Source of the DNA: Spirochaetia bacterium
GTDB lineage: Bacteria > Spirochaetota > Spirochaetia > CAKZLE01
DNA: 64,000 bases
Assembly: GCA_963677595.1 (NCBI GenBank)
Contig: OY782041.1
Coordinates: 1,056,001-1,120,000 of the forward strand
Direction of reading: 5' to 3'
The notes below the pieces were generated by a model. That model saw only the letters and a program-made list of their open reading frames with translations. It was not told where the DNA came from and searched no databases. This document shows, piece after piece, positions 7,023 to 51,407 of the stretch. The translations under genes and the position numbers were made by a program. Position 1 is the first letter of the stretch. Each line of letters begins with the position of its first letter.

Positions 7023-7029
7023 GGCTTAA

Positions 7030-7116
7030 CTATACGATATCATCGTATAGTTTTCAATTTTTTTATACGATACCATCGTATACTTTTAGCCATTTCTATA
7101 CGATGTCATCGTATAG
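7030..7116. repeat. Three palindromes TATACGAT-N3-ATCGTATA at 33-bp period upstream of ATPase A
   Basis: Cores start at 7031, 7064 and 7097. Confidence 0.9.
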
Positions 7117-7117
7117 T

Positions 7118-27602: not shown

Positions 27603-27632
27603 CCATGCCTCCACACCTTGATCCTACCACCA

Positions 27633-27709
27633 ACTTCCGAAGATATCAACGTTTTACTTCCGACTTTATCACCATTTTACTTCCGACAATACTACGATTC
27701 TACTTCCGA
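27633..27709. repeat. Four ACTTCCGA cores at 23-bp period upstream of ATPase B
   Basis: Cores at 27633, 27656, 27679 and 27702. Confidence 0.88.
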
Positions 27710-27720
27710 CTTTGTGATTA

Positions 27721-28983
27721 TTATGGCTTCAGACACCCCAGGGGGACTACGAAGACACCATCTTTTCTTCGGAAGGCATACTCTGTTCCTGTGATGATCA
27801 TCAGAAACGACGGCTGATTCATCTGTGCAGTATCGACTCTCTCCTTGAGCGCTAACAGGTTCTTTGCAGCTGCATCGACCTGTCTGGCTCCAAGCTTGAC
27901 TTCAACAGCAGCCCAGCGGCCGTCATTGAGGTGTATGATAGCATCTGCTTCAAGCCCTTCTTTGTCCCGGTAATGCGACAAGGTACCTCTCAGCGCCTGG
28001 CTGTAGACCCGTAAGTCCCTGATGACCAGTGATTCAAACAGCAGCCCGAATGTATGAGGGTCAAAGAGCAGATCTCGTGGAGTCGCCTGAAGAAAATATG
28101 CAGCCAGGGCTGGATCAACGAAATGGCGGGTGTCTGATACGCGAATTGCAGTCTTAGACCGAAGCTTCGGGCTCCAGGCGGGAAGATCCGCCAGCACGAA
28201 TAGCCGTCGAAGAGCAGTAAGGTAAGAATCCAATGTATTCATATGCAGGTGCTCATCAGTTGAGGAAAGATCTTTCATGATAGTTGTCTTTGATGCCTGG
28301 GAAGCTGTATGCCGTGCATAAGACCGTAGAATAGCAGTAACTTTTCGCTCATCACGCGTCACCCCGTCAACCGTTGAGATATCAGACTTGACGATCGCAT
28401 CACAATATCCAGCAATCTGTCTTTGATTGACTGCTTCACTGTTACCGATCATACCTGGCCAGCCCCCTCGAACGATAAGATGTGCATAATCTTCGATCTT
28501 CATCCTTGATCGGACAGCGATTGCCTGCGGATTCTCAAAGAGACTTGAGAGACTTACTGCACCATTGGAATCACCAGATTCAAACAGACTCATAGTGTAC
28601 ATGTTCAACCGAGAAATACGTCCAGCACCCGAATGTTTTATTTTGGTCTCATCAACGGATGTCGAACCTGTCAGAATATACAGGCCTGTTTCTCCCCTCA
28701 CATCAACCTCGTGTCTTACCGCATCCCAAAGCTGCGGGGCCATCTGCCACTCATCAATCAAACGAGGATTCTCACCCTCCAATAAAAGCGATGGTGTCAG
28801 ATCAGCCATCTGAATATATGCTTCCTGATTATCGGGGGAATGCATGCTTAGGGTACTTTGAGCAATCCGTTCAGCGGTAGTCGTCTTCCCGCACCATTTT
28901 GGTCCGACCAGCAAGACACCCCCGAAGGCCTCCAATTCCTCCTGTAGCAGCATATCCATGATCCGAGACATATAGGTTTTCAC
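27721..28983 (-). CDS. AAA_14/DUF4143-type ATPase-nuclease (paralog C)
   Basis: GPKWCGKT, RLIDEWQ, YILTGS, SGAGRI, EADAII...EVKLG; GTG start at 28983 after GAGGTGG. Confidence 0.9.
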   Translation of the reverse strand: MKTYMSRIMDMLLQEELEAFGGVLLVGPKWCGKTTTAERIAQSTLSMHSPDNQEAYIQMADLTPSLLLEGENPRLIDEWQMAPQLWDAVRHEVDVRGETGLYILTGSTSVDETKIKHSGAGRISRLNMYTMSLFESGDSNGAVSLSSLFENPQAIAVRSRMKIEDYAHLIVRGGWPGMIGNSEAVNQRQIAGYCDAIVKSDISTVDGVTRDERKVTAILRSYARHTASQASKTTIMKDLSSTDEHLHMNTLDSYLTALRRLFVLADLPAWSPKLRSKTAIRVSDTRHFVDPALAAYFLQATPRDLLFDPHTFGLLFESLVIRDLRVYSQALRGTLSHYRDKEGLEADAIIHLNDGRWAAVEVKLGARQVDAAAKNLLALKERVDTAQMNQPSFLMIITGTEYAFRRKDGVFVVPLGCLKP

Positions 28984-28996
28984 AATTTCCACCTCT

Positions 28997-30289
28997 CTAT
29001 ATGAGATTATCATGAAATGTGGGAATTGTCGAATATCCATTGTGTGATTTGGCGCTATTCCATTGTGGGAATTGGCGGTAATCTATTATGGTGCCAAGCC
29101 TGGCGGCCCAGAAGGGGATCAGGGAGAACCCGTTCAGGAACGTCAGGTTCCCGTACCGGTCTATCCAGGGATTCGAGAAGATCTTCACCGTCCAGTACCT
29201 GTTCCGGAACTGCGGTAGGAAATGCCGGTGTTCGTTCGTACTCCGCATCTCAGCCGTCAGATCCGTTCCCAGTGCCTCTACGATATGAACAGCAGCCTTC
29301 CTGCTCTCACATTGCCTTAGCAGGTCGCGGAAGTCGAGCCGGTACCAGCCATCCTCCAGGAGGCTGCCGCTCCTGGTCACGACACGTACATCCATGACCA
29401 TCAGGCCGGGCTCCGGAATCCTCCAGTCCCTGATCCTGTGGATGGTCTCCGTCCGTCCCACCTCCGGGAGCTGGGGCTCCTCCCCCCACAGGATCCTCGC
29501 TCCCTTTCCTGTATGCATGGCGGTCATGATGAGGGTGTTCCCATATTCCATCGTGATGCGGTATCCCTCCCCGGCCTCCCGGTTCAGCAGGGCAGGCTCA
29601 CAGCACTGCCCTATGAGTCCGACCAGGCAGGAACTGAGGTTCCCGATCCTCCGGTGCTGGGCGATGAACCTGTCCACCAGGAGGGAGTAGTCAGGATCAC
29701 ATCTGTAGAATGAGACCTCACAGTCATAGGTATAGTCACTGTCTGCATAGTACCATCTGATATCCTCCGGCAGTTCGAACCAGGGGTCCCGGGCCCCGCT
29801 GTTGAAGGCAGCTCCTGCCTGCCGGTACAGCTCCAGCCGGCTTATATCTTCCTGCTTGTACAGACTCAACAGGCTGAGATGCTTCTGTCTGATGAATACC
29901 GGGACCCCCTGGTACACCAGAGCCCGCCAGCACCCGTCAGGGGTGAACATGACTTGCTGCTCCGCTGCCCAGGTGACCAGCACCGGGAGCCCATGGAGTC
30001 TCTCCTGCCCCAGGCACCACAGGGCGAACTCCTCTGACGTACCGCTCCTGGGCGGGAACCACCTTGACCCGGGACAGATGCGGATCACACGATACCCGGG
30101 AGTATCATGTGGATCCCATGGTTCGTCAGTCCTGAAGATGATCGTCTTCCCGTACTTGCTCCGATCGAGCACCTCCAGCATCAGGGTCGCGTCATCGAGC
30201 TGGTCATAGGATCCGACCCGCCAGAACCAGTTATTCTCGAACCATTCAATATACTCCTGGTTGCTCTTGCTCAGAACAGGTAGTAGCAT
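28997..30289 (-). CDS. Hypothetical protein (430 aa); 3' end reads through the repeat array
   Basis: Long ORF with host-like codon usage; no recognisable motif. Confidence 0.6.
   Translation of the reverse strand: MLLPVLSKSNQEYIEWFENNWFWRVGSYDQLDDATLMLEVLDRSKYGKTIIFRTDEPWDPHDTPGYRVIRICPGSRWFPPRSGTSEEFALWCLGQERLHGLPVLVTWAAEQQVMFTPDGCWRALVYQGVPVFIRQKHLSLLSLYKQEDISRLELYRQAGAAFNSGARDPWFELPEDIRWYYADSDYTYDCEVSFYRCDPDYSLLVDRFIAQHRRIGNLSSCLVGLIGQCCEPALLNREAGEGYRITMEYGNTLIMTAMHTGKGARILWGEEPQLPEVGRTETIHRIRDWRIPEPGLMVMDVRVVTRSGSLLEDGWYRLDFRDLLRQCESRKAAVHIVEALGTDLTAEMRSTNEHRHFLPQFRNRYWTVKIFSNPWIDRYGNLTFLNGFSLIPFWAARLGTIIDYRQFPQWNSAKSHNGYSTIPTFHDNLI
29016..29084. repeat. Three degenerate 23-bp tandem units upstream of ATPase C
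   Basis: AATGTGGGAATTGTCGAATATCC / ATTGTGTGATTTGGCGCTATTCC / ATTGTGGGAATTGGCGGTAATCT. Confidence 0.8.
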
Positions 30290-37500: not shown

Positions 37501-39776
37501 TCGTGAACAAGCCATTGGTGATCACCCTCCACTACAAGAACATCAGCGATGAGGGGGTCGCCCCCGAATCGCGTCTCTACTACTGGCTTCAGGAGTCTGA
37601 CGGGAGGAAGACGCTCGGGAACATCCCCACCCCCTTCCTCATGCCGGGAGAGTCGAAGGAGATCCCGATCGTCTACACCCCCCGGTCCTTCGGGGACCTT
37701 GCCATCGGGATCACGGCGGACGGGACCTACAAGATCATCGAACAGTCTGACCTCAACAACTACTATGACACGAGGGTTCCGATAGTCTCCTCCCAGGATT
37801 CGGGGATCGCCGAACCTCTCGACCAGCTCGGCCCTTTCAATGACATCCTCGGGGACGGCACTGCCGGGGTACTGGCAGCCGACATCAAGGAGGTCACGAT
37901 CGCCCGGGATGCGGACACCACCTACTTCAACATGAAGTTCCCCGAAAAGATCCAGCCGAGGATCTATGCCTACATGATCTTCATCGATGCCCCGCTGAAC
38001 GACGGGCCCGGGTACCCGGTGAGCAATCTGCAGGCTGACTACCTCATCTCGGGCGGGGCCCTCTGGCGCTATACCGGGAAGGATTCCGGCTCCTGGTCAT
38101 GGAAGAAGCTCGACTCTGTGGAGGGCTTCTCCTACAGCATCATCGATGACTCGAAGGGGATGGAGTTCGGCGTACCGAGCAGCCTCCTCTATGCCGACGA
38201 TACCGACTGGGGTAACATCATGCCGGAGGACCAGCTGGGTGCGATCTACTACGTCAGCGACGAGGACAACGAGACCCTGGACGAGATCTACCCCTCCTAC
38301 ACGACCTCTCTCGCCTTCCCACCCATGGGGAAGCGCATCACCATAGACGGGAACATGGCCGACTGGGCACTGAATGCAGCAGCAAGCTACACCGGTCGGG
38401 AATCGGTCGATGACGGCTTCAACAAGCGTCTGCTGAATGTGGCGAATGCGATCGGGGGCTATGCCGACATGAAGAAGATCTCCGTGACCTTCGATGAGTC
38501 CTACTTCTACATCCAGCTGACGATGGACCAGCGGATCAGCCTCGATCTCATCGACTACAGTATCTACTTCGACCTGGACCTCTCGGAGGAGACGGGATAC
38601 CTGCTGAGGAACAACCAGTTCGGGGCTGACTGCAGGATCCTCAACGGGGTCTTCTACACCTATGAGGGGGACGGGTTCTCCTGGGAATGGGCCCCGTCCG
38701 ACAAGCGGGTCTTCAGCAGCCTCGGCAATACCCGCTATCCCCAGTCGCTGGAGATGGCACTGGAGTACGGGGACCTCTTCGAAGGCGTGCCCGAGATGGA
38801 GATCTATATCGTCACGAGCGACAAGAAGGGTGTCGGCTGGGAAGATGACATCGACGACTTCTTCCCCGATGCTTCCCGGTCACGCTACATCATCCCCCTC
38901 GATAAGATCGATGAGGTCTATGTCGAGAGTGACCTCAGCTTCATCTCCCAGGTCGAGGAAGCGTATACTGAGGTGTCAGATGAGGACCTCTATATACAGG
39001 ATTCTGATGACGTTATTGACTACCTATTGAACACGGTGGTCTCGGTCGACACGATCGACGGGAACTTCTATGACTGGGAGCTTGACCCGAATGTGGTATT
39101 CATCGGGAAGGACGTGATCGAGAACCGGCCGATGGGTATCCAGTCCTATGACATCGATACCGTGAGCTATGTCTTCCATGACGGGCACTTCTTCGTCCGC
39201 ACGACGGTCGCAGGGCCGATCGACCGGCTCGACTGGCGTGCCGTCTACTACATCGACACGGATGACGACAAGAGTACCGGCTATGTGAACAAGAACCACG
39301 GCTATGACTACATGATGCAGGGAGACGGGAACCTCTTCTACCTCGAGGACGGCAAGGAGTTGAAGCCGGTCCTCATCGGCATGGTACCCCTGATGGTCTC
39401 GAAGTCTGACCAGATGGCGGTGGAGTTCGCCATCCCTGAGGCCATGTGCGGGGGATTCAATGACGAGTTCGTCCTCTATGTACGGTACGGGGCCCAGGAG
39501 ACCCGGTTCTCAGCCTTTGATGAGTACGGTCCGGTCAGGCTCTCCCGCTACAACAAGCTCCTGCCCACCGACAAGGTCTCCCTGCCGCCGATCTTCCTGG
39601 CTATCCTTGCAGGCATCTTCATCCTGCTGCTCTTCGCCCTGAACACCATGAACTCCTACAGGACGGCAAAGAAGCAGAAGGAGCTCGACAGGAAGCAGGC
39701 GAAACTATCCACGATCTATGCTGAACCTGAGAAGGAGGAGAAGGATGAAGACAAGAAGCATTACGATCTTGACTGA
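34512..39776 (+). CDS. Large secreted, C-terminally anchored multidomain glycoside hydrolase (GH114/PelA-like TIM barrel, Fn3-like, CARDB-like, DOMON-like repeats)
   Basis: Signal peptide; YDVVICHP, IGYVSIGED, DGIFLDTV, WES; two PDL/PDV..V.I.N.G..D..I.E..E.NN CARDB-like units; repeated (V/I)DGN..DW; C-terminal TM plus charged tail. Confidence 0.7.
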   Translation: MKKSLLPIIFCISLVFPSMLYGEPSESAAQGLADLQEIATSVGLLEEAADFESDGFDAVHLSWDPSPAAGTAGYNVYRSILRYDPERRPEITVDGNLKDWNSVRKANTYPYPEEDLLHIQDVYVTHDDANLYLAVKCTSSISDAAMTEIFLDVDQDLLTGSGSKDWRGLPIGAEIMFYYNHPDTIYRKVWDPSWEGPYPYNEFVSNNYADPAHAWKDAYDMTWIGAAEFGTTKADVIGSLLARDIPRSWENDVWEMKVPFEDLRELTGYEIDPAHFGIDIVVSTNFDQFPTVGYGPKSPMKFSYGYEKVNDEPVSGTTFDDHPIDGLEYEYTVFAVDSTGDEHLLDGWPKTADVAKSMVDDFNVSINDEHSLAVEFDFPDNDSLSEVKILRRDDRYPEGPSDGDIIKTIPYEKGGHARVIDRGLQQGKSYFYAAYSTAIDGTGSIEFWDIKDRSIPAAVRGPIEGLSPDDDYMAYFSSWDATRVYLAKKYDVVICHPGGGSQLITREQVDEIQRGLDGKRGTDDDVIVIGYVSIGEDFGINPQILRNNKVLGIHPNIDDYPEGVSWDLKNYYYPRKLETSTEGPVSYSYEDDTYTLSDADDPTYQFPSFYVDMIDYMGQGGAGQDGLPDQNIEWGGLFVDPGNTLWQDFIREADITTDYVAGIDWVLGDEDGALGCDGIFLDTVGVSAAWSQWFPYTYYGDYFWTSSGFLDFFARIGMWYPDKILMPNRPMHFMFPNMMGKRYDDFRSLINAVFWESYSADVLFWWGGNYANIFEDTVVNAEDNKDDRGFSTFVLDYWNVMIDAEEGGEYQKAPWYDTLEDQIKRAEGNDFISFVSGSRSMAEFSDFVYYYHHPEERNLPDLYVHSIGIERAENDQVSVKVNITNLGKAVDDWEHFWVQVYQNDRLIREFDIAGLRYLEIKSFDFLISPDDIGNDIRVMVDTRDDIDELDELPGHESNNTKGRYVDRYLEFVEGWYPTGFAPDVIIEDITFSSDYPVVNKPLVITLHYKNISDEGVAPESRLYYWLQESDGRKTLGNIPTPFLMPGESKEIPIVYTPRSFGDLAIGITADGTYKIIEQSDLNNYYDTRVPIVSSQDSGIAEPLDQLGPFNDILGDGTAGVLAADIKEVTIARDADTTYFNMKFPEKIQPRIYAYMIFIDAPLNDGPGYPVSNLQADYLISGGALWRYTGKDSGSWSWKKLDSVEGFSYSIIDDSKGMEFGVPSSLLYADDTDWGNIMPEDQLGAIYYVSDEDNETLDEIYPSYTTSLAFPPMGKRITIDGNMADWALNAAASYTGRESVDDGFNKRLLNVANAIGGYADMKKISVTFDESYFYIQLTMDQRISLDLIDYSIYFDLDLSEETGYLLRNNQFGADCRILNGVFYTYEGDGFSWEWAPSDKRVFSSLGNTRYPQSLEMALEYGDLFEGVPEMEIYIVTSDKKGVGWEDDIDDFFPDASRSRYIIPLDKIDEVYVESDLSFISQVEEAYTEVSDEDLYIQDSDDVIDYLLNTVVSVDTIDGNFYDWELDPNVVFIGKDVIENRPMGIQSYDIDTVSYVFHDGHFFVRTTVAGPIDRLDWRAVYYIDTDDDKSTGYVNKNHGYDYMMQGDGNLFYLEDGKELKPVLIGMVPLMVSKSDQMAVEFAIPEAMCGGFNDEFVLYVRYGAQETRFSAFDEYGPVRLSRYNKLLPTDKVSLPPIFLAILAGIFILLLFALNTMNSYRTAKKQKELDRKQAKLSTIYAEPEKEEKDEDKKHYDLD

Positions 39777-40587
39777 CAACCATACGATCACGGACTCCTA
39801 CTTCCTCGGGGAACCGGGACTCTCGATCCTCATCGAGGATGGGGAGGCATCGACCCTCTTTGACTGCGGGTATTCGGATGTCTTCATCAGGAACGCGACC
39901 AAGCTGGGGAAGGACCTCACAGCCGTTGACCATCTCGTGCTCTCCCACAGCCACCTCGACCATACCTGGGGCCTATGCGACTTCATGAGACTGTTCACCG
40001 AGGCACGGTTTCTGGGACGTAAGCCCAATCGGCCGGTCCTCGTGGCGCACCCGGAGGCCCTCACCCCGACCACCCTCCCCGGCATCGGCCAGATCGGGTC
40101 TCTTATCCCGAAAGAGCGGCTCGATCCCTGCTTCCAGGTCAGCCTATCGAGGGAGCCGGTACGGCTCTCCGAACACTGCACCTTCCTCGGGGAGATCCCG
40201 AGGGTCATGCCCTTCGAACCGGTCCCCTCGATCGGGTTCAAGGACGAAGGGCAGAGGGAGGACCATATTCCCGATGATTCAGCCATAGTCTGCACCACCG
40301 GCGAAGGACTGGTGATCATCACCGGCTGCTCCCATGCAGGGATCTGCAACATCTGTGAATACGCGAAAGAAGTATGTTCCGATGACCGCATCATCGATAT
40401 CATCGGGGGGCTCCACCTCATCGATGCACCAGCCGCACAGCTCGAAGGGACTGTCGCATACCTCAAGGGACTTGGGCTCAAGGCCCTCCATGCCTGCCAC
40501 TGCACAGGGCTGCAGGCGCTTGCAGCCCTGGCAGCTGCCGCACCGGTCATCGAGACCGGGGCAGGGCTTCGTATCACCTATACCTGA
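39745..40587 (+). CDS. Metallo-beta-lactamase fold hydrolase (MJ0301/DHPS-like subfamily)
   Basis: GEPGLS, LFDCG, LSHSHLDH, TGCSHAG, IGGLHL, CHCTG. Confidence 0.88.
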   Translation: MKTRSITILTDNHTITDSYFLGEPGLSILIEDGEASTLFDCGYSDVFIRNATKLGKDLTAVDHLVLSHSHLDHTWGLCDFMRLFTEARFLGRKPNRPVLVAHPEALTPTTLPGIGQIGSLIPKERLDPCFQVSLSREPVRLSEHCTFLGEIPRVMPFEPVPSIGFKDEGQREDHIPDDSAIVCTTGEGLVIITGCSHAGICNICEYAKEVCSDDRIIDIIGGLHLIDAPAAQLEGTVAYLKGLGLKALHACHCTGLQALAALAAAAPVIETGAGLRITYT

Positions 40588-40718
40588 GCAATGTAATAAA
40601 ACTAAGAAATTGCTTATATTCATTTACGTTTCCCTTTTTTCATACTATACTTACGGTTGGTTGATCTGAACCGATATCGTTCACTCGTGAACGAGGGTAA
40701 CACGTAACAGGAAAGCAC

Positions 40719-41156
40719 ATGCTCAAGATCGATGATTATATCCCCTTCTCTATCTCCCTTCACGGCCGCATCATGCTTGACACATTGAACGAGCTTGTCG
40801 CACCCTTCGGCATCACCCGATCCCAATGGGCGGCACTCTATTTCATTGCTGAGAATCCTGAGATCAATATGACCCGTCTCGCTGAACTCATGGTAGTCAG
40901 GACATCCACGATCGTACGGCTGGTGGAGCGGATGGTAAAAGACCTGCTGATCACCAAGAAGCAGCTTCCCTCCGACAGGAGGAACATCATGCTCACCTGC
41001 ACCAGGAAGGGAAAGCTCATCTACCGGAAGACCATACCTGTCGTCAAGCAGTTCGAGCAGAGCCTGATGGAGGGGATAGACCCCGGTGATCTCGAGACCT
41101 GCCGGACGGTCTTTCTGCAGATGGCGGCGAATGCCGCCTCCTGCAGGGATGAGTGA
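40719..41156 (+). CDS. MarR family regulator
   Basis: GITRSQW, LAELM...TIVRLVERM, DRR...T.KG. Confidence 0.88.
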   Translation: MLKIDDYIPFSISLHGRIMLDTLNELVAPFGITRSQWAALYFIAENPEINMTRLAELMVVRTSTIVRLVERMVKDLLITKKQLPSDRRNIMLTCTRKGKLIYRKTIPVVKQFEQSLMEGIDPGDLETCRTVFLQMAANAASCRDE

Positions 41157-41220
41157 TAAAATATCCCTGAATTTCCCAGATACTTGAATCAATTCGCACA
41201 TTTTTCCGTTTAGTATCTAT

Positions 41221-41904
41221 ATGAAGAACTATAAACACCATCAAAGAAACCGTGCGTTAGCTGTTTACGACGGTAAGCCGAGGGAGCGACTCACTACCCA
41301 CGGCTCAGAGTCGTTGTCCGACCTCGACATCGTGGCGATCCTGCTTGGTACCGGGAGTAAAGAGACACCGGTTCACCGCCTGGCCCTCAAGCTACTCGAT
41401 ATCATAGACGAGAAGAAGGAAGCTCTGCAGTCCTCAGACCTCACCGGGCTCAACGGTATCGGGGAAGCCAAGGCCTCAGTCCTCCTTGCTGCCCTGGAGC
41501 TGGGAAGGAGGATGGAGTATACCACAAAAAGGCAGATCGCCTTTCCCAGCGACATCTACCCCCTGGTGAGGCATTACGCGGACAGGCAGCAGGAGCACTT
41601 CCTCCGGGTATCACTCAACGGGGCTCATGAGGTCCTCTCCATCGGGGTGGTCTCCATCGGCCTGGTGAACCGGACGATCGTCCATCCCCGTGAGGTCTTC
41701 GCCACCCCGATCAGGGAACGTGCCACCTCCATCATCGTAGCCCATAACCATCCGAGCAGGAACCTCACCCCCAGCAGGGAGGACCGGGAGGTGACCATCC
41801 GGCTGGTGGAGGCCGGCAAGATCCTCGGCATCCACCTGCTCGACCACCTCATCTTCTCTGATGAGGAGTACTACAGCTTCCTCGAGCAGGGGGAGATGGA
41901 ATGA
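41221..41904 (+). CDS. radC: RadC/JAB domain protein
   Basis: PRERL, GIGEAKA, VHPREVF, AHNHPS, S.ED, LLDHLI. Confidence 0.92.
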   Translation: MKNYKHHQRNRALAVYDGKPRERLTTHGSESLSDLDIVAILLGTGSKETPVHRLALKLLDIIDEKKEALQSSDLTGLNGIGEAKASVLLAALELGRRMEYTTKRQIAFPSDIYPLVRHYADRQQEHFLRVSLNGAHEVLSIGVVSIGLVNRTIVHPREVFATPIRERATSIIVAHNHPSRNLTPSREDREVTIRLVEAGKILGIHLLDHLIFSDEEYYSFLEQGEME

Positions 41905-41916
41905 GGCTCTGTGCTG

Positions 41917-42177
41917 CTATTCATAATGCGTCCACATACGCAAGATCTTGACTATCTGGTGCTCTTCGAGCACCTGGTAGACTATTCTATGCTGGATATT
42001 GATCCTTCTGGAACAAGCCCCTGTCAGGTCTCCAAGCAATCGTTCATAGGGAGGATAATCAGTAAAAGGATCCTGTCTCAGTACATCCAGGATGTGTTCA
42101 GCTTTTCCCTTCAGGTTTGAAGCAGATAATTTCCTGGCGTCTTTTTTCGCCTGTTTTGTGAACAGTAGTGTATACAT
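41917..42177 (-). CDS. yoeB: Txe/YoeB family toxin
   Basis: PPYE.L.GDL.G.CSRRINIQHRIVY...RMWTHYE. Confidence 0.92.
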   Translation of the reverse strand: MYTLLFTKQAKKDARKLSASNLKGKAEHILDVLRQDPFTDYPPYERLLGDLTGACSRRINIQHRIVYQVLEEHQIVKILRMWTHYE

Positions 42178-42419
42178 CACCACTCAAGATCTTCATCCAG
42201 ATCAGCGACAGGGGTGTTCATCCCCTCCAGGATCGATTCCCTCATACCGGGAATAGAAGTGAGAAACAGTGTTTCCGTGATACTACGCCAGTCGTCTTCC
42301 CCGACCAGTACGGCTGAAGCATATTTACCGGTTATCTCTATAGGTTCATGAGTCTCATTCACTTCTTCAACTATTTTGTATAAATACTTTCGTGCATTAG
42401 TAACATTCATACTGCCCAT
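42177..42419 (-). CDS. yefM: Phd/YefM antitoxin
   Basis: NVTNARK.LY, EPIEIT, DWRSITETLFL.SIPGM; TGATG coupling to the toxin; CGTACG repeats upstream. Confidence 0.9.
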   Translation of the reverse strand: MGSMNVTNARKYLYKIVEEVNETHEPIEITGKYASAVLVGEDDWRSITETLFLTSIPGMRESILEGMNTPVADLDEDLEW

Positions 42420-42593
42420 ACCATCTCCGTACGCTTTTACGTACGTAGATAGTATCATATTGAATTCATCTTGTCCAGTGATTCGATCAAGCGTACGGAA
42501 AGCTGCTCAGGCATCATGCATAGGGATATTGAATGTGCCGATTTTACGATCAATCATCTGCGTGAGGTCTACACCGTAGTATCCTTGGCATCC

Positions 42594-42668
42594 CATTCGG
42601 TTAAATTCTCTCATTCCATTCGGTCATATTATCTGTTTCCATTCGGTTAGATTCTCTCTTACGGAACA
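42594..42668. repeat. 75-bp block of three 23-bp-period CATTCGG units (downstream copy)
   Basis: 68/75 identical to 44009..44083 by manual alignment. Confidence 0.9.
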
Positions 42669-42669
42669 A

Positions 42670-43935
42670 TCACGGTCTCAATGCCGTGATCGGTACCACG
42701 CAGACACCATCTGGTCTGCGGTAGGCTGCGCTTGAGAGGCCGCAGATCACACAAAGAGTAGTTGCCGGACGTTCGAATCTCTTGTTTATGTCCAGGAGCT
42801 TTGCAGCAGCCTCGTCAATCTGGTTCGCCCCCAATTTGATCTCAAAGGCGGACCAGCTTCCATCCGGAAGTTCTACAACCGCATCGATCTCATTATTCTT
42901 GTAGTCCTGGTAATGCAGGAGATTGGCACCGAAAGATTGCGCATAGATCCGGAGATCCCGTTCACATAAAGCCTCGAATAGAAATCCAAACGTCCTCAGA
43001 TCCCCGATCAATCTTCTTTCATCAGTGATGCCCAACAGCGAACATGCAAAAGATGGATCGACGAGATGGCGTTTCTCTGCCTGCTTGATGCGAAGGGAGG
43101 AACGTAAGGCAGCCGCAAATGGTTTCTGGTTCTCGATGATGAACAGCTTCCCTAAGATATTGAGGTACGCAGCGATGGTATCCTCATCGATGGTTAAATG
43201 CTCAACTCCTTTCATGTCACTCTTCAGACGTCTCATGGATGCTGTAGTACTCTCGTTCCGTGCAAGAGAGCGAAGCAGAAGACGCATCTTCGCCTCATCA
43301 CGCACATTGTCATCTACTTTGGCGATATCATTAGTCACCACATTCTCTAAGTACTGTGCTGGGACCTTACAGGCATCTTCCGTCGATAAGCCCAGGCTGC
43401 CGGGCCAGCCTCCCCTCAGGATATAGGATGCCAAAGCTTGAAGACTCACTTCGCCAGTCATGCTGTTCTCAAGCGTACCGGCACATAGCTCTTGCAAGGA
43501 TATGTTTCCAGCGGAATCTCCCGACTCGAACAACGACATAGGCATCATGCGCAGTCGTGCTATACGACCAGTACCACTATGCATGACCCCCTTGTGTGCA
43601 GGGGTGGCGCTGCCGGTAAGGATGAACTGTCCCTTCAAGGTGCTCTTATCGACGGTGAACCTTACCGCATCCCAGAGCGACGGCACTTCCTGCCATTCAT
43701 CAATCAGACGAGGCTGCGTACCTGTAAGAGCCATAGACGGATCTATCTGTGCGAGCTGCCTGTTCTGAAAATTTCTATATGGGTCTTCGACAAAGAACTC
43801 ACTTTGAGCATGCTTCTGCCCAGTCCAGGTCTTCCCGCACCACTTTGGGCCCTCAATGCAGACTGCCCCGAATACCCTGAGGTACTGCTCGATTGCCGTG
43901 TCTATGACACGTGGTCTATAGAAACTAGTGTCCAT
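42670..43935 (-). CDS. AAA_14/DUF4143-type ATPase-nuclease (paralog D)
   Basis: GPKWCGKT, RLIDEWQ, FILTGS, RGGWP, EIDAVV...FEIKLG. Confidence 0.9.
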   Translation of the reverse strand: MDTSFYRPRVIDTAIEQYLRVFGAVCIEGPKWCGKTWTGQKHAQSEFFVEDPYRNFQNRQLAQIDPSMALTGTQPRLIDEWQEVPSLWDAVRFTVDKSTLKGQFILTGSATPAHKGVMHSGTGRIARLRMMPMSLFESGDSAGNISLQELCAGTLENSMTGEVSLQALASYILRGGWPGSLGLSTEDACKVPAQYLENVVTNDIAKVDDNVRDEAKMRLLLRSLARNESTTASMRRLKSDMKGVEHLTIDEDTIAAYLNILGKLFIIENQKPFAAALRSSLRIKQAEKRHLVDPSFACSLLGITDERRLIGDLRTFGFLFEALCERDLRIYAQSFGANLLHYQDYKNNEIDAVVELPDGSWSAFEIKLGANQIDEAAAKLLDINKRFERPATTLCVICGLSSAAYRRPDGVCVVPITALRP

Positions 43936-43985
43936 GTACATGCTCCTACACAAAGAGTACTACAAAAGATTTGCATAAGCAATGG

Positions 43986-44083
43986 TATTCGGTTAAATTC
44001 CCCGATTTCATTCGGTTAAATTCTCTCATTTCAATCGGGCATATTCTCTGTTTTCATTCGGTTATATTCTCTCTAACGGAACA
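43986..44083. repeat. Four 23-bp-period ATTCGG units upstream of ATPase D
   Basis: Units at 43986, 44009, 44032 and 44055; ends ACGGAACA like the downstream copy. Confidence 0.9.
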
Positions 44084-44086
44084 TCT

Positions 44087-44968
44087 CTACAGCTTGCTGC
44101 GTGACAGCTTGAGGACACTGAGCAGGTAGAACAGGACCGCGAAGGCAACGAGGTACAACACCATGATTGGGTTGCCCAGCTCTTTGTCCCCAACGTGTAC
44201 GGAGAGCCCGTACAGGTTGGCATACTGGTCATAGGCTTCCTGCGGTGCATTGGCAAACACTTTCTCTATGGCCCCGCTCATATAGATCCTGCGAATCAGG
44301 ACGACGCTGGAGGAGGTGGGCAGCAGGTTCATCACGGCCTGCAGCCCTTCGCCCAGGACGCCGATGGGAATGTAGATGCCTCCCAGGAAGCCTATGAAAG
44401 TCCCCACAAGGGTACTGAGGAGGCCGAAGGCATTCTGGCTCCTCATGAACAGGCTGATGAAATAGAACATGCTGCTGAAGCTCACGATTGATAGACTGTA
44501 CAGGCCGACCAGCTTCAGGAGGACCTGAAGGGGGAAGAACTCCCCGCCGTTTGACAGCACATAGACCAGCCCCACTACCAGGTTCAGGCTCACCATGATG
44601 ATGGAGATGATCCATGTGCTCATCAGGTAGCTCAGGGCCAGGATGTTACGGTTGATGGGAGAGGTATAGAAATCGATGATCCTGCCTGATTCCCGGTCCT
44701 TGATCATGGTCCCCAGTGAGGCAAGGGGTACGGTCACCGTTGATACCGTCAGGATCCCCGCCATGATCCAGCTGCTCGTGAGCCAGTCGATCCCGGGGAC
44801 CGCCCCGAAGGACTGGCTCAGGTCGTTCGTCTGCATCTTTCCCAGGAACAGGATATACATCAGGATGATGATGATCACTGCAAGGAAGCTGAAGAAGACC
44901 GATGCCCGGTCACGGAAGAACAGAAGGGAATTGCGTTTGATCAACTGCAGCAAGGTCTTCATCTTCAT
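44087..44968 (-). CDS. ABC-2 type exporter permease
   Basis: FFRDR..VFFS; six TM segments; GFLGGIYIP. Confidence 0.88.
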   Translation of the reverse strand: MKMKTLLQLIKRNSLLFFRDRASVFFSFLAVIIIILMYILFLGKMQTNDLSQSFGAVPGIDWLTSSWIMAGILTVSTVTVPLASLGTMIKDRESGRIIDFYTSPINRNILALSYLMSTWIISIIMVSLNLVVGLVYVLSNGGEFFPLQVLLKLVGLYSLSIVSFSSMFYFISLFMRSQNAFGLLSTLVGTFIGFLGGIYIPIGVLGEGLQAVMNLLPTSSSVVLIRRIYMSGAIEKVFANAPQEAYDQYANLYGLSVHVGDKELGNPIMVLYLVAFAVLFYLLSVLKLSRSKL

Positions 44969-45870
44969 CTCTCCAGGTCCCTGCCGGTGATGTTCAGGAA
45001 CACATCATCCATAGAACCTTTCAGTATCTCGAACTCCCCTATCAAAGACTTGTACCTGTTCACGAGTCCCACCCCCTCGAAGGAATCCTTCAATGGTATG
45101 TTTACCGTCTCATTGACGGTGAAGTATTCCCTTCCATCCTGCTTCAGGGCTGCTTCCAGCTCCGGGGAAGGAGAGACCTTCAGCCGGTCAAAGGAGTACC
45201 GGCTTCTGAGCTCCTCACTCGAACCTACCGCCATGATCTCCCCCCGGTCGATGATCACCACCTTCCGGGCGTCGTGGACCTCCTGCATATAGTGGGTTGT
45301 CAGGAAGATCGTGATCTTCTTCTCGTTCCTCAACCGGTTGATCAAGGTCCAGATATCATTCCGGCTCTTGGGGTCGAGCCCGGTCGTGGGCTCATCCAGG
45401 ATCAGGATCTCAGGCCAGTTCAACAGGGCCCGGGCGATATCGGCCTTACGTCGCTGCCCTCCCGAGAGCCTGCCGTATCGCCGGTGGTAGAAGGGCTTGA
45501 TCTCGAGCAGGAAGTTGATCTCCTCCACCCGCTGGTCGACCTCATGCCCATGGAGGCCGTAGAAGGACCCCCGTATATGGAGGTTCTCGCGTACGGACAA
45601 CAGGTCATCCAGCACGGAATTCTGGAAGACCACCCCGATCGAGTCCCTGATGGCATCATCTTCCTTCCCCAGTTCTTTCCCGTTCACCAGGATGTGCCCG
45701 GAATCGTAGTCGAGCAGGGTCGAGAGTATGTTGATCGTCGTGCTCTTACCGGCACCGTTCGGGCCCAGGAAGGCAAAGAAGGAGTTCTTCTCCACGGTGA
45801 AACTGATCCCCTTCACCGCTTCCACCTTATCGTACCGTTTGACCAGGTCCTTGACTTCAATGCAGTTCAT
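44965..45870 (-). CDS. ABC exporter ATP-binding protein
   Basis: GPNGAGKST, LSGGQ, LDEPT, TTHY. Confidence 0.93.
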   Translation of the reverse strand: MNCIEVKDLVKRYDKVEAVKGISFTVEKNSFFAFLGPNGAGKSTTINILSTLLDYDSGHILVNGKELGKEDDAIRDSIGVVFQNSVLDDLLSVRENLHIRGSFYGLHGHEVDQRVEEINFLLEIKPFYHRRYGRLSGGQRRKADIARALLNWPEILILDEPTTGLDPKSRNDIWTLINRLRNEKKITIFLTTHYMQEVHDARKVVIIDRGEIMAVGSSEELRSRYSFDRLKVSPSPELEAALKQDGREYFTVNETVNIPLKDSFEGVGLVNRYKSLIGEFEILKGSMDDVFLNITGRDLER

Positions 45871-46102
45871 AGTAGGTATTATACCCGCATTCATGCAGGT
45901 ATTGTACTATTTATCATGAATTATCTTGTATGAGGCAGCTCCCGTCACTCATTGATGATCCCATACCCGGGGTCCCAGCACGGGGATAGGGGTCATGGGT
46001 GTACGCAAGATCCTGGTTGCACGACCTCCCGATATACTCTAAGATTGAACCAGTCACATGCAGGCCGCATGGGTGAGAGCATACGACGGATGGAGACTGA
46101 CA

Positions 46103-47212
46103 GTGGAACACCGTACTGATTCGCGATGGGTACATACATTCAAACGAAAATATTCCGTGAAAGAGAGGATCTTCCTCTACTATATGCTGTTCTTCGCCAG
46201 CCTGGCGGTGCTGACGATCATCACCAACATACTCTTTGGCCTGGATTTCTCCTTCAACTACAAGTGGCTGGGTCTTGCCGCATTCTGTGTGGTCATGGGG
46301 ATCCTTGCCCTCAAGGGGATCAGGACGTCCCAGGTCCATCGCCTGGGCACCTACGCGATAGCCCTCGTGATCCTCCCGCTCTCATGGCTGAGCAGCTCCG
46401 GATTAGTGTCACCGAGCATCATCTACTCGCTCGTGATCATGCTGCTGATCAACTTCCTCCTGGAAGGGACAGAACGGCTCATCATGAATGGCCTGTTCCT
46501 GGTCCTTCATATGGGGCTGATCACCCTGTATCGGTACCAGCCCGAGCTGTTCAAGCCGATGACCGCGCAGGAGCAGTTCATCGACTGGATGATCAATGTG
46601 CCCATCATCTTCGCGTTCATCGCGCTGCTGCTGATCGTCTTCGAACGGGCGTATGAGCGGGAGCGGGTCCAGGGTCTGGACAAGACCAGGAGACTGGAGG
46701 TCCTGTCTAACACGGACCCACTGACCGGCCTTGCCAACAGGCTGAACCTGATGGATGACATCGAGACGCGGTTACAGGATGCGAAGCAGCATGGGACACG
46801 CTTCTCCCTCATCATCCTCGATATTGACTTCTTCAAGCGCTTCAATGACACCTACGGCCACCTGCAGGGTGATATATGCCTGAAGCAGGTCAGCGGTATC
46901 CTGCAGGACGCTGCCCGGCAGGGGGATAGGAAGGCTTACCGCTTCGGAGGGGAGGAGTTCCTCATCCTCCTGCCGGGAACCGACCTGGCCGGGGCGAAGG
47001 TGTTCGCACAGCAGGTGAGGGAGATCATCAGGGATGCCGCCATCCCCAATGAGCATTCGGAAGTCTCATCGATCATCACCGTCAGCATGGGCATAGCCTC
47101 CTCAAGCCCGGGTATCGACGGGGTCACCCTCTTGCGTCAGGCAGATACCGCATTGTACAGCGCGAAATCTGCCGGGAGGGATGGTATCGTCTGCTTTGAT
47201 CCCGAAACCTGA
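46103..47212 (+). CDS. Membrane-bound diguanylate cyclase
   Basis: TM N-terminus; DPLTGLANR, DIDFFK..ND.YGH..GD, RFGGEEF; start uncertain (46058 or 46103). Confidence 0.9.
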   Translation: MEHRTDSRWVHTFKRKYSVKERIFLYYMLFFASLAVLTIITNILFGLDFSFNYKWLGLAAFCVVMGILALKGIRTSQVHRLGTYAIALVILPLSWLSSSGLVSPSIIYSLVIMLLINFLLEGTERLIMNGLFLVLHMGLITLYRYQPELFKPMTAQEQFIDWMINVPIIFAFIALLLIVFERAYERERVQGLDKTRRLEVLSNTDPLTGLANRLNLMDDIETRLQDAKQHGTRFSLIILDIDFFKRFNDTYGHLQGDICLKQVSGILQDAARQGDRKAYRFGGEEFLILLPGTDLAGAKVFAQQVREIIRDAAIPNEHSEVSSIITVSMGIASSSPGIDGVTLLRQADTALYSAKSAGRDGIVCFDPET

Positions 47213-48016
47213 TCAGTAAGGAGTATCAAACAGGTTTAGCGTATCCAGGAATGACCTGAAGTTCACGATCATAGAGGCTCTCTCCCGGCTGAACATGAGG
47301 TGCCCGACATCTTTCTGCTTATTCACAAGATCCACTTCAGATGACCGAAGCTCCAGAGCCTTCTTTAGTTCCTGTCCGTCATGTATCCCATGCCGTATAC
47401 TGAGGAATCGGTAATCCGGTCTTGTCTGCCCCAGGAGGAACATCACATCATAGAAGTCCCTTCCCTTCCCACGATCCAAAAGAGCCGATATCTTCATGGC
47501 ACAGAGAGTTTCGTCAGGCGGTACGGGTATCGGAAAGAAGAACCCGCAACTCTGCACGAAAGCCGGTACCGTCTGGTACGGGATTCCCTGATCCTCCATC
47601 TCGACTTTTATAAGAAACCTCTCATTCCTGTACCCGCTCAGCTGCAGCCCGAACAGCAGCTGAGGGAAATAGAGGGACCTCCTGAACGCCGTAAGGCCAT
47701 CATGCTCCCGCTCTTTCGGCTCAACCTCATAGCCCAGATAGCCAAGATGCCTCACTACCCCGTCAGTCATGGCGAGAAAATCATCTTTCGACATCCCCTT
47801 GCAGTCGAAGTCAAGGTCTTCAGAAAACCTTTCAATTCGCTTGATCAACCGGAGATTTGTTCCCCCGATGAATGAGAGACGTGAGATAAACGGAGAGTTC
47901 GAGAGGTACTCAAGGATCTGGCACTGGATATACTCCTTGAGCATCAACTTCTGGAAACCTGTATCATCCCTGATTGAAGCAGGGAAGAAATTCTTGATGG
48001 CAGCTATCTCGATCAT
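47213..48016 (-). CDS. abiEii: AbiEii-type nucleotidyltransferase toxin (type IV TA)
   Basis: FIGGTNLR...RFSEDLDF, K..A...R..GRDFYD. Confidence 0.88.
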   Translation of the reverse strand: MIEIAAIKNFFPASIRDDTGFQKLMLKEYIQCQILEYLSNSPFISRLSFIGGTNLRLIKRIERFSEDLDFDCKGMSKDDFLAMTDGVVRHLGYLGYEVEPKEREHDGLTAFRRSLYFPQLLFGLQLSGYRNERFLIKVEMEDQGIPYQTVPAFVQSCGFFFPIPVPPDETLCAMKISALLDRGKGRDFYDVMFLLGQTRPDYRFLSIRHGIHDGQELKKALELRSSEVDLVNKQKDVGHLMFSRERASMIVNFRSFLDTLNLFDTPY

Positions 48017-48651
48017 AGGTATACCTCCTTCATCATTGACAGCCTCCGCCTGAGGCTGTCTGACCCGAACCTGGTAAGATATGCCTCTAAACGCTCAGCA
48101 TCAAGCTCGTCCTGCATGAAATCAACATCAAAACGCAGCTCCTGCATATCAGCTTCACTACGGAAGTGCGGATTCAGGTACAGGAAGTCAAGAATCGCCT
48201 TCTCTGGGGTTGCCAGCATGATACTCCACCCCTTGGTACGAGCGGAAGGCTCAATGGTATACCCGAACATCAATTCTGGTTTGACGGACCGGTAGACGAA
48301 CTCCCCGAGATCGTTGTGGAAGCTCTTCGTCTTCCTTGCCGTCACGCTGGTAACAGGGATGACGGCTTCCGGGATGATCCCGAAATAGGAGAGGGCTTTT
48401 TCAAGGCTGATATACGAGGGAGCATATATCTTGTTGGCAGCAAAGAAGGGAGTATCACCATTCTGCTTATGGGCAGGGAACATATAGAACCCCTGCCGGA
48501 GCCTGATGATCTTTCCCTGCCGCTCCCAGCGCCCGAGATTGTTCCTGTCGAACCCTTCATTCCATACCCGTACCTGGTGGATGGAGAAACAGCCGAGAGG
48601 AAAGAAGAAATCCCTGAATTCGAGAAACGAAATATTCTTTTTCATTTCCAT
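48013..48651 (-). CDS. abiEi: AbiEi-type antitoxin
   Basis: IRLRQGFY, PSYISLE.AL..FG.IPE, TSVT, ATPEKAILDFLY; ATGA overlap with the toxin. Confidence 0.85.
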   Translation of the reverse strand: MEMKKNISFLEFRDFFFPLGCFSIHQVRVWNEGFDRNNLGRWERQGKIIRLRQGFYMFPAHKQNGDTPFFAANKIYAPSYISLEKALSYFGIIPEAVIPVTSVTARKTKSFHNDLGEFVYRSVKPELMFGYTIEPSARTKGWSIMLATPEKAILDFLYLNPHFRSEADMQELRFDVDFMQDELDAERLEAYLTRFGSDSLRRRLSMMKEVYL

Positions 48652-48681
48652 AATACGTCAATTATACAGCATTATGGAAAT
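48644..48681. promoter_or_regulatory. Inverted-repeat operator of the abiE operon
   Basis: ATTTCCATAAT-N16-ATTATGGAAAT overlapping the start codon. Confidence 0.65.
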
Positions 48682-48737
48682 ATAACAAGTATTCTACAGG
48701 CGATATGGTCAGGAGGAAAGCATCCTCCAACCATGTC

Positions 48738-50015
48738 TTAATCCCTCAATGCCGTGATTGGTATCACATAAACACCATCGGGTCGGAGGTAGGAGGCGTT
48801 GGTAAGACCGCAGATCACTCCAAGAACCGTCGGAGGCTTCCCCTTCGGATCGCTTTCGATTCCAGACTTGATCTTCAACAGGCTCTTTGCTGCATCATCC
48901 ACTTGGTTTGCACCAAGTTTGATCTCAAAGGCACCCCATCTGCCATCCGGCAGCTCCACGACAGCATCGATCTCATTGCCCTGGTAATCCTGGTAATGGT
49001 ACAACTTTGCATCATTGGCTTCTGCATAAATCTTCAGGTCACGCTCACAGAGTGCCTCAAACAGAAATCCCAAGGTCTCCAGGTCTGAGAGCAGGGCCTC
49101 TTCCGTTGTCCCCAACAGGGCACACGCCAGGGATGGATCGCAAAAATGATGTTTGACTGATTGTTTCACACGTACCGAAGAGCGTATACGCGGACTGAAA
49201 GGCAGCTGGTTATCAAGGAGGAAGAGTCGCTCAAACACATTCAGGTACTCAGCTACCGTTTCCACATCTATATCATCATCGTCTATTTCCTTAATATCAT
49301 GCTTCAGGGTCCTGTTCGTGGCTGTGGTACTTTCGTTCCTTGCAAGGGACCGTAACAACAGACGTACCTTCTGCAGGTTCCGCGAACGTCCATCTACCCT
49401 ATTGATATCTCTCTCTATGACTGCCTCTATATATTGCTTTGGCAGCAATCGTGCTAACTCAGGATCCATGCCAATGTTCTCCGGCCATCCCCCACGAATA
49501 ATGAGCCGGATGATCTCCCGAAGATCAACATCCCCGGTAAATACTGATCTGGCACTTTCTGCAAATATATCCTTAAGGGAAACGGAACCCGAAGAGACCC
49601 CCATCTCATAGAGAGACATGGGGCTCATGCGCAATCTGGCGATTCGTCCTGCCCCGCTGTGAAGAATACCGTAATCCGTTGGAGCAGAAGACCCAGTAAG
49701 GATGAACTGCCCCGGTTCTCCCCGTTCATCAACCGCATAACGAACAGCATCCCAGATTGACGGGACTTCCTGCCATTCATCGAGCAACCGGGGAGTATCA
49801 CCATCTAGGATGAGGTAAGAATCCAGCAATGCCAATCTGCGATTGCTGAAATTGCCTACTGGTGCTCCAACATAGAAACTACTATTGCTATGGTGCAATG
49901 AGGTCATGGTCTTCCCACACCATTTAGGCCCTTCGATGCAGACAGCTCCAAACGCCCTGAGGTAGGTAGTTACCTTGTTGTCAATCAGTCGCGGCAGATA
50001 TTTCTTTCCATCCAT
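48738..50015 (-). CDS. AAA_14/DUF4143-type ATPase-nuclease (paralog E)
   Basis: GPKWCGKT, RLLDEWQ, FILTGS, SGAGRI, EIDAVV...FEIKLG. Confidence 0.9.
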   Translation of the reverse strand: MDGKKYLPRLIDNKVTTYLRAFGAVCIEGPKWCGKTMTSLHHSNSSFYVGAPVGNFSNRRLALLDSYLILDGDTPRLLDEWQEVPSIWDAVRYAVDERGEPGQFILTGSSAPTDYGILHSGAGRIARLRMSPMSLYEMGVSSGSVSLKDIFAESARSVFTGDVDLREIIRLIIRGGWPENIGMDPELARLLPKQYIEAVIERDINRVDGRSRNLQKVRLLLRSLARNESTTATNRTLKHDIKEIDDDDIDVETVAEYLNVFERLFLLDNQLPFSPRIRSSVRVKQSVKHHFCDPSLACALLGTTEEALLSDLETLGFLFEALCERDLKIYAEANDAKLYHYQDYQGNEIDAVVELPDGRWGAFEIKLGANQVDDAAKSLLKIKSGIESDPKGKPPTVLGVICGLTNASYLRPDGVYVIPITALRD

Positions 50016-50070
50016 ATATCTTTTCCTTATAGAAAATTATATCACAATAAAAATTCTAGTACAAGCCACT

Positions 50071-50214
50071 ACCCGACAGATTCATTAACTTCAATCCGAC
50101 AGATTCATTAACTTCAATCCGACAGATTCTTTAACTTCAACCCGACAGATTCTTTAACTTCAACCCGACAGATTCTTTAACTTCAACCCGACAGATTCAC
50201 TAATCTCAACCCGA
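50071..50214. repeat. Six and a partial tandem copies of the 23-bp unit AYCCGACAGATTCWTTAACTTCA upstream of ATPase E
   Basis: Units at 50071, 50094, 50117, 50140, 50163, 50186 and a partial at 50209. Confidence 0.95.
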
Positions 50215-50222
50215 TAATAGCA

Positions 50223-51332
50223 TCACCCAAGAAGGTACTGCAGATTCAACTGGTAGGATACCGAACGACCTCTTGCATCACTCTGTGTCAGCACCTGCTT
50301 GAAAACCAGATCTGCAAGATCACGTTTTGCTGTTTCCCGGCTGGTCTTAGTAATCGAGACGTAATTCCTGTTTGTCAGTCCACCGGTATACGGTTCAGGA
50401 TAGATATCGATCAGTTTCCTGATCACTTTCTGCTGTCTCTCATTCAATGAAAGACTGTTGATCCGTGCATACATCCTTGCAACGTGTTCAACACGCAGGA
50501 ATACCTTCTGAGATGCATCGATCGCGCTGCTCATCATATCAATGAAAAAGACGATCCAATCAGTGACATCAAGATCCCCTTGCTGCATGCTTTCCAGCAC
50601 AGCATAATACTCCGTTCTCTGCTGCAGGATCGATTGAGACATCGCATATCCCCTTGTACCGGTATGCTCATCCTGAGCCAAGGCAAGATCGGAGAGTAAT
50701 CTTGCCAATCTGCCATTGCCATCTGAGAATGGGTGAATCGAAACGAACCAAAGATGCGCAAGGGCTGCCCTGATGATCCCATCTGGAACAGCATCCGGGG
50801 TATTCCACCACCTGAGAAACCGTTCCATCTCTTCGGGAACTCGTTCAGAGGGCGGGGCCTCATAATGGATGACTTCATGCTTCAATGACCCCGATATGAT
50901 CTGCATCTGTTCATGAATACCTCTCCACCAGCCAACGGTGACCCTATAAGGTCCGGAATAGCCCGTGGGGAACAGTGAAGCCTGCCAACTACACAACTTC
51001 TCCGATGTCAACGGTTGTCTAAACCCCTTCATGGCATCAAGTAATGCAGCCACGAACCCGTCTCCTTCCCGTGGGGAAGGAAGCCCTGCTGTTGGAAGAC
51101 CAAGCCTCCTAGCGATGGAAGACCTGATCGATAACGGATCCAACGGTTCATCCTCTATCAATGAGGAACTTACGATCTCATTCTCCAACAGGAATCCTTC
51201 TTCGCGGAGTCCCAAAGATGGTAAACGGGCAAGAAGATTCCCTTGTTTTCTCCGAACCTGTGAGAGGCTAGGGAGAATCCTCTCCGCATCCCAGGTAAAT
51301 CCCGGCCAAGCTTTTTGTTCCCATATATACAT
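50223..51332 (-). CDS. Fic family protein (DUF4172-Fic-HTH)
   Basis: MYIWEQ..WP.F.WD, SSLIE.E, HPFSDGNGRLAR, TA.RDL.DLV. Confidence 0.9.
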   Translation of the reverse strand: MYIWEQKAWPGFTWDAERILPSLSQVRRKQGNLLARLPSLGLREEGFLLENEIVSSSLIEDEPLDPLSIRSSIARRLGLPTAGLPSPREGDGFVAALLDAMKGFRQPLTSEKLCSWQASLFPTGYSGPYRVTVGWWRGIHEQMQIISGSLKHEVIHYEAPPSERVPEEMERFLRWWNTPDAVPDGIIRAALAHLWFVSIHPFSDGNGRLARLLSDLALAQDEHTGTRGYAMSQSILQQRTEYYAVLESMQQGDLDVTDWIVFFIDMMSSAIDASQKVFLRVEHVARMYARINSLSLNERQQKVIRKLIDIYPEPYTGGLTNRNYVSITKTSRETAKRDLADLVFKQVLTQSDARGRSVSYQLNLQYLLG

Positions 51333-51344
51333 GCATGACTCCAC

Positions 51345-51407
51345 CTGACCCAATTAATCTACTTTTTGGGTCATTATCTGACCCAATTATACCTGTTAAT
51401 CGAGTCA
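51345..51407. repeat. Operator-like repeats upstream of fic
   Basis: CTGACCCAATTA at 51345 and 51378 (33-bp period); inverted TTGGGTCA at 51366. Confidence 0.7.

Follow-up and report, generated by a model that had tools for sequence, protein, structure and literature searches.

A duplicated repeat array around a PDC-S01 ATPase-nuclease gene in a Spirochaetia bacterium: a likely recombination scar that permits gene loss

The gene encoding the ATPase-nuclease D is bracketed by two copies of the repeat array that precedes it, and comparison with contigs from public runs revealed two further natural alleles of the site, one carrying the gene without the downstream copy and one lacking the gene. 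The site is likely a one-off recombination scar that permits gene loss, and not a dedicated cassette system; we infer the order of events from the contigs. It lies in a stretch of 64,000 nucleotides that was analysed as a whole (the window), and its features are the following.

41917..42410, minus strand: yefM-yoeB toxin-antitoxin pair, the right flank; a promoter-like site of its own lies at 42449-42477
42594..42668, minus strand: orphan downstream array copy, made of three 23-bp units (d1-d3) and the unique left end, without fourth unit or promoter
42595..42608, no strand assigned: 14-nt exact core in d3; in its register the window allele connects to the empty one (joint 42607 to 44052)
42668..42670, minus strand: head-to-tail junction of the module's right end (stop plus 1 nt) with the array's left end; a weak match of 2 nt only (AT) with the spacer end in run X3
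42670..43935, minus strand: ATPase-nuclease D, 421 aa, AAA_14 and DUF4143 domains, PADLOC PDC-S01, with Walker A, Walker B and D..ExK motifs
43943..43982, minus strand: predicted D promoter (-35 box 43977-43982, 17-bp spacing, -10 box 43954-43959) and ribosome-binding site (43943-43947), recognised by eye and by conservation in relatives of 80-86% identity
43986..44083, minus strand: upstream array, made of the 23-bp units u1-u4 and the unique left end, the duplicated part being 44009-44083; likely the D operator, a putative function
43987..44000, no strand assigned: partner 14-nt core in u4
44087..45894, minus strand: ABC-2 permease and ABC ATP-binding genes, the left flank

Aligned at an offset of 1415, positions 42594-42668 and 44009-44083 share 68 of 75 nt, and at both ends the similarity goes no further. 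The identity of the two array copies is ~91% and their divergence 9.3% (95% CI 3.8-18%), the seven separating positions being 44031, 44034, 44039, 44047, 44054, 44065 and 44075. Units d1-d3 differ from u1-u3 at 7 of 69 nt, versus 18 when shifted against u2-u4. An earlier note on this DNA, made from the sequence alone, had described two ~91%-identical 75-bp copies with the unit order kept, and this was confirmed. In the 4.33-Mb single-contig genome only these two 75-nt copies were found (E ~3e-20) and no third, the next matches being 16-17 nt long (E 0.017-0.093). It had also placed each copy right after a stop codon. The TGA of D (42670-42672) is indeed 1 nt from the downstream copy and the permease TAG (44087-44089) 3 nt from the upstream array, but the closeness to the permease is allele-specific, other strains having 35 or ~42 letters more. 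The array-gene-array layout is likewise real, but the downstream copy is partial: the fourth upstream unit (43986-44008) and the predicted promoter (43954-43982) lie outside the duplicated part. All three unit cores are intact in the downstream copy, with d2 closer to the consensus than u2, and d3 shares its exact 14-nt core (42595-42608) with u4 (43987-44000) at an offset of 1392. Ten 23-bp arrays were counted genome-wide: seven stand before close ATPase paralogues, two are unrelated two-copy repeats, and the downstream copy is the sole remaining multi-unit array that does not precede an ATPase paralogue. A CRISPR array was considered and rejected, the 23-bp units running head-to-tail without spacers.

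D (42670-43935, 421 aa) resembles known PDC-S01 (COG1373) proteins in matching the PADLOC profile PDLC04790 (E 2e-61) and both Pfam domains, AAA_14 (PF13173) and DUF4143 (PF13635). Residues G29-K35-T36, D79-E80, D351 and E365-K367, of the Walker A, Walker B and PD-(D/E)XK-type motifs, are invariant or nearly so across 57 sequences. By these sequence matches D is a single-gene PDC-S01/COG1373 member and a candidate anti-phage ATPase-nuclease; its best homologues are from Spirochaetia. The structure model of D (pLDDT 90.5) retrieved the archaeal AAA+ ATPases 2fna and 2qen and DNA-bound Cdc6/Orc1 in a fold search, all of them distant (TM 0.24-0.43), and in these structural relatives the middle helices presumably form a winged-helix DNA-binding domain. 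The GC content of D (48-50%) is slightly under that of its flanks and is uninformative. PDC-S01 is described in PMC12988326 as a very common single gene for an ATPase fused to a PD-(D/E)XK domain, still of candidate status, and is reported there to rank fourth in frequency among the candidate defence genes of prokaryotes; the accessible part of PMC3424549 gives DUF4143/COG1373 as of unknown function. What sets the present locus apart from the family in print is its upstream array, second copy and allele turnover, on none of which anything was found for PDC-S01 in the main texts covered, few of them subscription papers.

A tblastn search of the genome with D gave 15 matches, of which the seven closest all carry an upstream 23-bp array of their own and the eight distant ones carry none; the second array copy is found at D alone among the seven close paralogues (0/6 of the others). 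Among 142 testable homologue loci, upstream 23-bp periodicity (score at least 12) was present in 102 and downstream periodicity in 1. The upstream array is likely the operator of the D protein itself. The D promoter was not picked up by a consensus promoter scan. In relatives of 80-86% identity (L016, L017, L018, L021, L096, L097 and L121) the last repeat unit lies inside the -35/-10 spacer. The corresponding unit of D (43960-43976) has decayed, and its array stops before the -35 box.

Several other repeats and paralogues were noted in the window. Two PDC-S01 paralogues stand in tandem at 26331-29091 in the order array-gene-array-gene, each array being different and the second beginning directly after the stop of the first gene. 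In the region 47213-51353, a Fic/DUF4172 gene is clustered with an AbiEi-AbiEii pair and a further PDC-S01 paralogue, whose 23-bp array has six units (50071-50214). At 5847-7117 a distant AAA_14-DUF4143 gene has an array of 33-bp period (7030-7117) directly upstream, and eight 12-bp repeats at 12202-12299 encode a run of VTPE towards the end of the 492-aa ORF at 11043-12521.

Contigs from four public runs (X1-X4, from three samples and three studies) were compared with window positions 39500-47500. X2 is from the same sample as X1, with a small word share (0.13), and all alleles were read from unphased contigs, among the pieces and differences listed. The window itself represents allele A, array-gene-array. 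In X1, record 3 (2411 nt, depth 6.2) runs through 40851-42607, 6 other letters, 44052-44083, ~42 other letters and 44084-44647, so that 80 letters separate 42607 from 44084. This allele C is an empty site with a single two-unit array and no gene, the empty single-array allele that the earlier note had predicted. The 1415-bp excision predicted along with it was not borne out: allele C is 1438 bp shorter than the window between the arrays (1392 + 46), a length that fits a crossover in 14-nt cores 1392 bp apart plus the loss of two units. The X4 pieces break off at 42607 and 44084, the five bins that cover the gene all have zero depth, and the 44083/44084 joint is present in X2; these joints agree with the empty allele and support it short of proof, the X1 contig being the only one to bridge the gene site.

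In X3, position 42593 is followed, after 12 other letters, by 42669 in a contig of depth 28.9; this is allele B, in which the gene is present and the downstream copy absent. A contig of depth 30 has 35 letters between the array and the permease end, and the matching depths suggest that these two unphased contigs likely belong to one strain. X3 thus has the gene without the copy, and the duplicate is not needed for a gene at this site. Record 17 of X3 spans the gene with 18 other letters (of ~1355 nt) and has five upstream units, one of them an extra u4-type unit; the X3 gene contig is ~1.3% from the window gene. In a second closed genome the D protein is 99% identical and the permease 96% identical. 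The window's permease end differs at 15 of 564 positions from the empty allele versus 22 of 249 from the diverged X3 allele, and the window flanks are 2.7% and 5% different from the empty allele. The array-to-yefM junction is exactly the same in A and C and is absent from B, which links alleles A and C by recombination in the array. The left unit of allele C was placed on the upstream copy, and its last unit starts like u4 and ends like d3.

Four different sequences adjoin the left edge of the array (44083/44084): the permease end in the window, the 35 letters in X3, the ~42 letters in X1 and, for the downstream copy, the ATPase stop. The 3' half of the permease (44308-44556) has two alleles 9% apart in X3, with flanking DNA ~2% apart, and the permease of the second closed genome (P0005) differs from that of the window mostly in its second half. 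The 35-letter spacer of X3 does not occur in the genome of the window, with up to 3 mismatches allowed. DNA comparison found no syntenic full or empty site among 60 related genomes, and the permease query had no match in 5 other genomes of the family. The exact 25-base pattern of the yefM-side flank occurred in 0 metagenome contig stretches, records very near the window having possibly been left out of this search.

To account for these alleles we favour, at about an even chance, the reading that the downstream 75 nt are a promoter-less orphan from an enzyme-independent head-to-tail junction whose second gene was lost, and that the two arrays then let recombination delete the remaining gene. 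The ancestral state would be array-gene without a copy (allele B, as in X3), followed by A and then C. A second module, arising by duplication or from a sister allele ~9% diverged, would have joined right behind the stop at the 2-nt match and then have lost its fourth unit, its promoter and its gene. Crossing over between u4 and d3, within their common 14-nt core, would remove 1392 bp to give the empty allele, and slippage would remove two further units (46 bp). The last unit of allele C, with its u4 start and exact d3-to-yefM end, is the chimera expected from such a u4 x d3 crossover. The upstream array would be the operator of the protein, and the orphan copy would have no required job. Deletion between direct repeats by RecA-dependent recombination, slipped misalignment or single-strand annealing (PMC4627823) offers a close parallel: the repeats at D share their orientation, with 1.4 kb between them, and the empty allele has one chimeric repeat; the available text of that source describes RecA-independent deletion between repeats 1-11 kb apart, but its repeats measure 438 bp, whereas those at D are short and imperfect (14 nt exact).

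Whether array bracketing is a habit of the family was examined in 142 non-redundant testable homologue loci (162 were fetched and 20 dropped for short flanks or redundancy), and a gene's own array copied downstream was found in none. The same was true of the 26 testable loci among 29 class-wide ones, which are partly the same records as the larger set, with the window as positive control. Two hits of 12-14 nt in the 142-locus survey were rejected as copies, being at chance level, and so was a perfect 23-bp array downstream of L128, which is unrelated to the L128 upstream array. This array reaches the contig end and possibly belongs to the next paralogue. A genome search found no tyrosine recombinase within ~545 kb of the site, and the single serine recombinase lies 1.8 Mb away. 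None of eight matches passed the TIGR02249 cut-off for an integron integrase (the genome is 95.4% complete), no attC-like single-strand hairpin was found in the arrays (folding z -0.16, 0.54, -1.25 and -1.18), and no Rfam family matched them. The gene is carried on seven plasmid records of 23-900 kb and two homologue loci are on viral contigs, with no mini-circle among either. With no recombinase near, no integrase, no attC-like fold and the layout in 0/142 and 0/26 loci, the cassette-like character that the earlier note had considered for the unit appears unlikely.

When near-identical modules from different contexts are compared, homology ends close to the array edge in 39 of 49 pairs (-50 to -150 from the start) and close to the stop in 81 of 98 (-30 to +50), the pairs coming from only 20 clusters and a few stops being mis-anchored; the ends are not base-precise and by eye have no shared terminal motif or target duplication. 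Direct repeats of at least 25 nt and of other sequence flank 9 of 114 homologue loci (those non-redundant with 1-kb flanks, of 191) versus 2 of 200 ORFs of the own genome, a loose control from one genome (Fisher p 0.002), and several of the nine resemble dispersed repeats. At L031 a second copy of the upstream gene's 3' end lies behind the ATPase (91%, 237 nt; 347-583 nt upstream and 50-286 nt downstream), which by sequence clearly appears to be a gene-end displacement scar. Since module ends lie near the array edge and the stop, the repeats flanking other loci are of other sequence and the own array is copied in 0/142, what moves is the array together with the gene; untidy scars surround this unit fairly often, and bracketing by its own array is a rare accident.

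Integron cassettes and att-flanked elements share with this locus a compact one-gene unit with boundaries adjoining stop codons, flanked on either side by direct repeats, and the existence of an empty site in relatives. The unit differs from them in having its own promoter inside, and neither an attC-like fold nor an integrase nor an own or adjacent recombinase was found, action in trans being possible; the flanking repeats are also not a family trait (0/142, 0/26 and 0/6 paralogues). Also comparable are the orphan scars of the V. cholerae T6SS effector-immunity, Rhs and CDI loci (PMC5361080), where, as here, a diverged remnant is stranded behind a module without a dedicated recombinase and strains vary. 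The available text of that source attributes these orphan or displacement scars to homology-facilitated illegitimate recombination. At D, a diverged copy of the upstream sequence is stranded behind the module, but the remnant is the gene's own non-coding repeat array, left by a single round and not as a string. As to microhomology and a homologous anchor on the other side, the junction offers a match of 2 nt, and the permease end of the window is no nearer to the diverged X3 allele.

The favoured reading, of a joined second module that lost its gene, has difficulties of its own. Several steps are required, among them the subsequent disappearance of the 35-42-nt spacer from the strain of the window. 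Barring later gene conversion, the gene seems younger than the duplication, because the copies are 9.3% apart, as against 18 of ~1355 nt for the X3 gene contig and 99% protein identity in the second genome. That the permease end is nearer the empty allele than X3 may also fit gain into an empty-type chromosome, and the break shared by three alleles and the duplicate within 2 nt of the same array edge is left partly to chance. A rival is an empty allele that came first, which we regard as possible though unlikely: the gene was deleted, leaving an orphan array, and homology-assisted illegitimate recombination then brought in a complete array-gene module of a sister strain at the left edge of the orphan, where it took the place of the 35-42-nt spacer, with arrays that differ through their different lineages. 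The window allele would then be an X3 left part joined to an empty-type right part, consistent with flanks 2.7% and 5% from the empty allele, a gene 1.3% from the X3 contig and a protein 99% identical to that of the second genome (permease 96%), and one event would account for both the missing spacer and the junction. Such a mechanism is proposed for orphan arrays in the accessible sections of PMC5361080, scars of this kind occur around homologues (L031, for example), and a homology-facilitated illegitimate route is also given in the available part of PMC3240628. Against this order, the observed empty array is placed on the upstream copy and ends in a u4-type unit where a d-type one is needed, two illegitimate junctions or a spacer-less donor are required, and the same part of PMC5361080 calls the process rare. 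Integration of a 1.4-kb circle of array plus gene, closed at the stop and the array's left end, by crossover inside a resident array, with excision as the reverse, is distinctly unlikely. The empty allele is formally the recipient it needs, the junction joins both natural module ends at a 2-nt match, and the five upstream units of X3 record 17, with u4 doubled, are what such a crossover would give, but slippage yields a doubled u4 as well. Moreover, no circle junction (a joint going back) was among the listed pieces of the X1-X4 contigs, contigs being prone to drop rare variants; the required register has only 14 exact nt; the spacer-bearing array of X3 is placed on the upstream copy (by an undocumented placement rule) where the donor should be d-type; and the product was seen in 0/142 and 0/26 homologues and in no mini-circle beside the seven plasmid records of 23-900 kb. 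Of the two origins offered in the earlier note, the module with a lost second gene therefore fits better and the circle less well.

That the protein itself drives mobility, binding its own array, cutting beside the left edge and promoting gain and loss of the module, with orphan arrays as preferred landing sites, we consider very unlikely. The four sequences that adjoin one array edge within 2 nt, the clustering of module ends at array edge and stop across 20 clusters, the intact nuclease motif and the place of COG1373 among the co-shared mobile genes of gut genera in the accessible part of PMC10782964 speak for it; imprecise ends without a shared terminal motif or target duplication by eye, and a single orphan array in the genome, speak against it, and trimming to a minimal working unit would account for the clustering. 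The broader proposal that PDC-S01 modules are minimal self-mobilising elements, whose array is bound, whose edge is cut and which excise and return without a recombinase, is improbable and is kept alive because the array's left edge breaks recurrently. Repeat layouts such as incC-repA-incA of P1 function as a plasmid replicon, and D likewise is a gene of AAA+ and helical DNA-binding-type fold between two phased direct-repeat sets, but it is chromosomal and nuclease-fused and its second repeat set is not conserved. An iteron replicon of the P1 type was rejected, the second repeat set being absent from the X3 allele and the homologues. A related suggestion, that the downstream copy is a selected second operator, which would titrate the protein, form a loop with the upstream array or bring yefM-yoeB under the control of the protein, is highly improbable: it draws on the three intact cores, on d2 lying nearer the consensus than u2 and on the resemblance to P1 (gene order incA, repA, incC in the available text of PMC6906374), but neither the X3 allele nor any homologue tested has such a copy. 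The array does now stand before yefM-yoeB, as the earlier note had remarked, but it has no promoter, stops 117 bp short of the promoter-like site of yefM on its upstream side and does not appear to have been recruited. Finally, an assembly artefact is hardly credible. No listed piece spans 42668/42669 and the contamination estimate of the genome is 6.28%, but the genome is a single contig, the copies differ at 7 places, and X1 and X4 independently join array sequence to the yefM flank at 42593/42594.

On present evidence the bracketed gene is most likely an ordinary recombination scar, and the upstream array found across the family is the more general feature. The site offers three natural alleles at which gain and loss of PDC-S01 can be studied at base level, and at which PDC-S01 appears to come and go without an integrase. 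If the self-mobilising proposal were true, the site would be a natural snapshot of the cycle, full with two arrays, full with one, and empty. The 1.4-kb site is in any case a ready substrate for asking whether the activity of the protein affects its own deletion.
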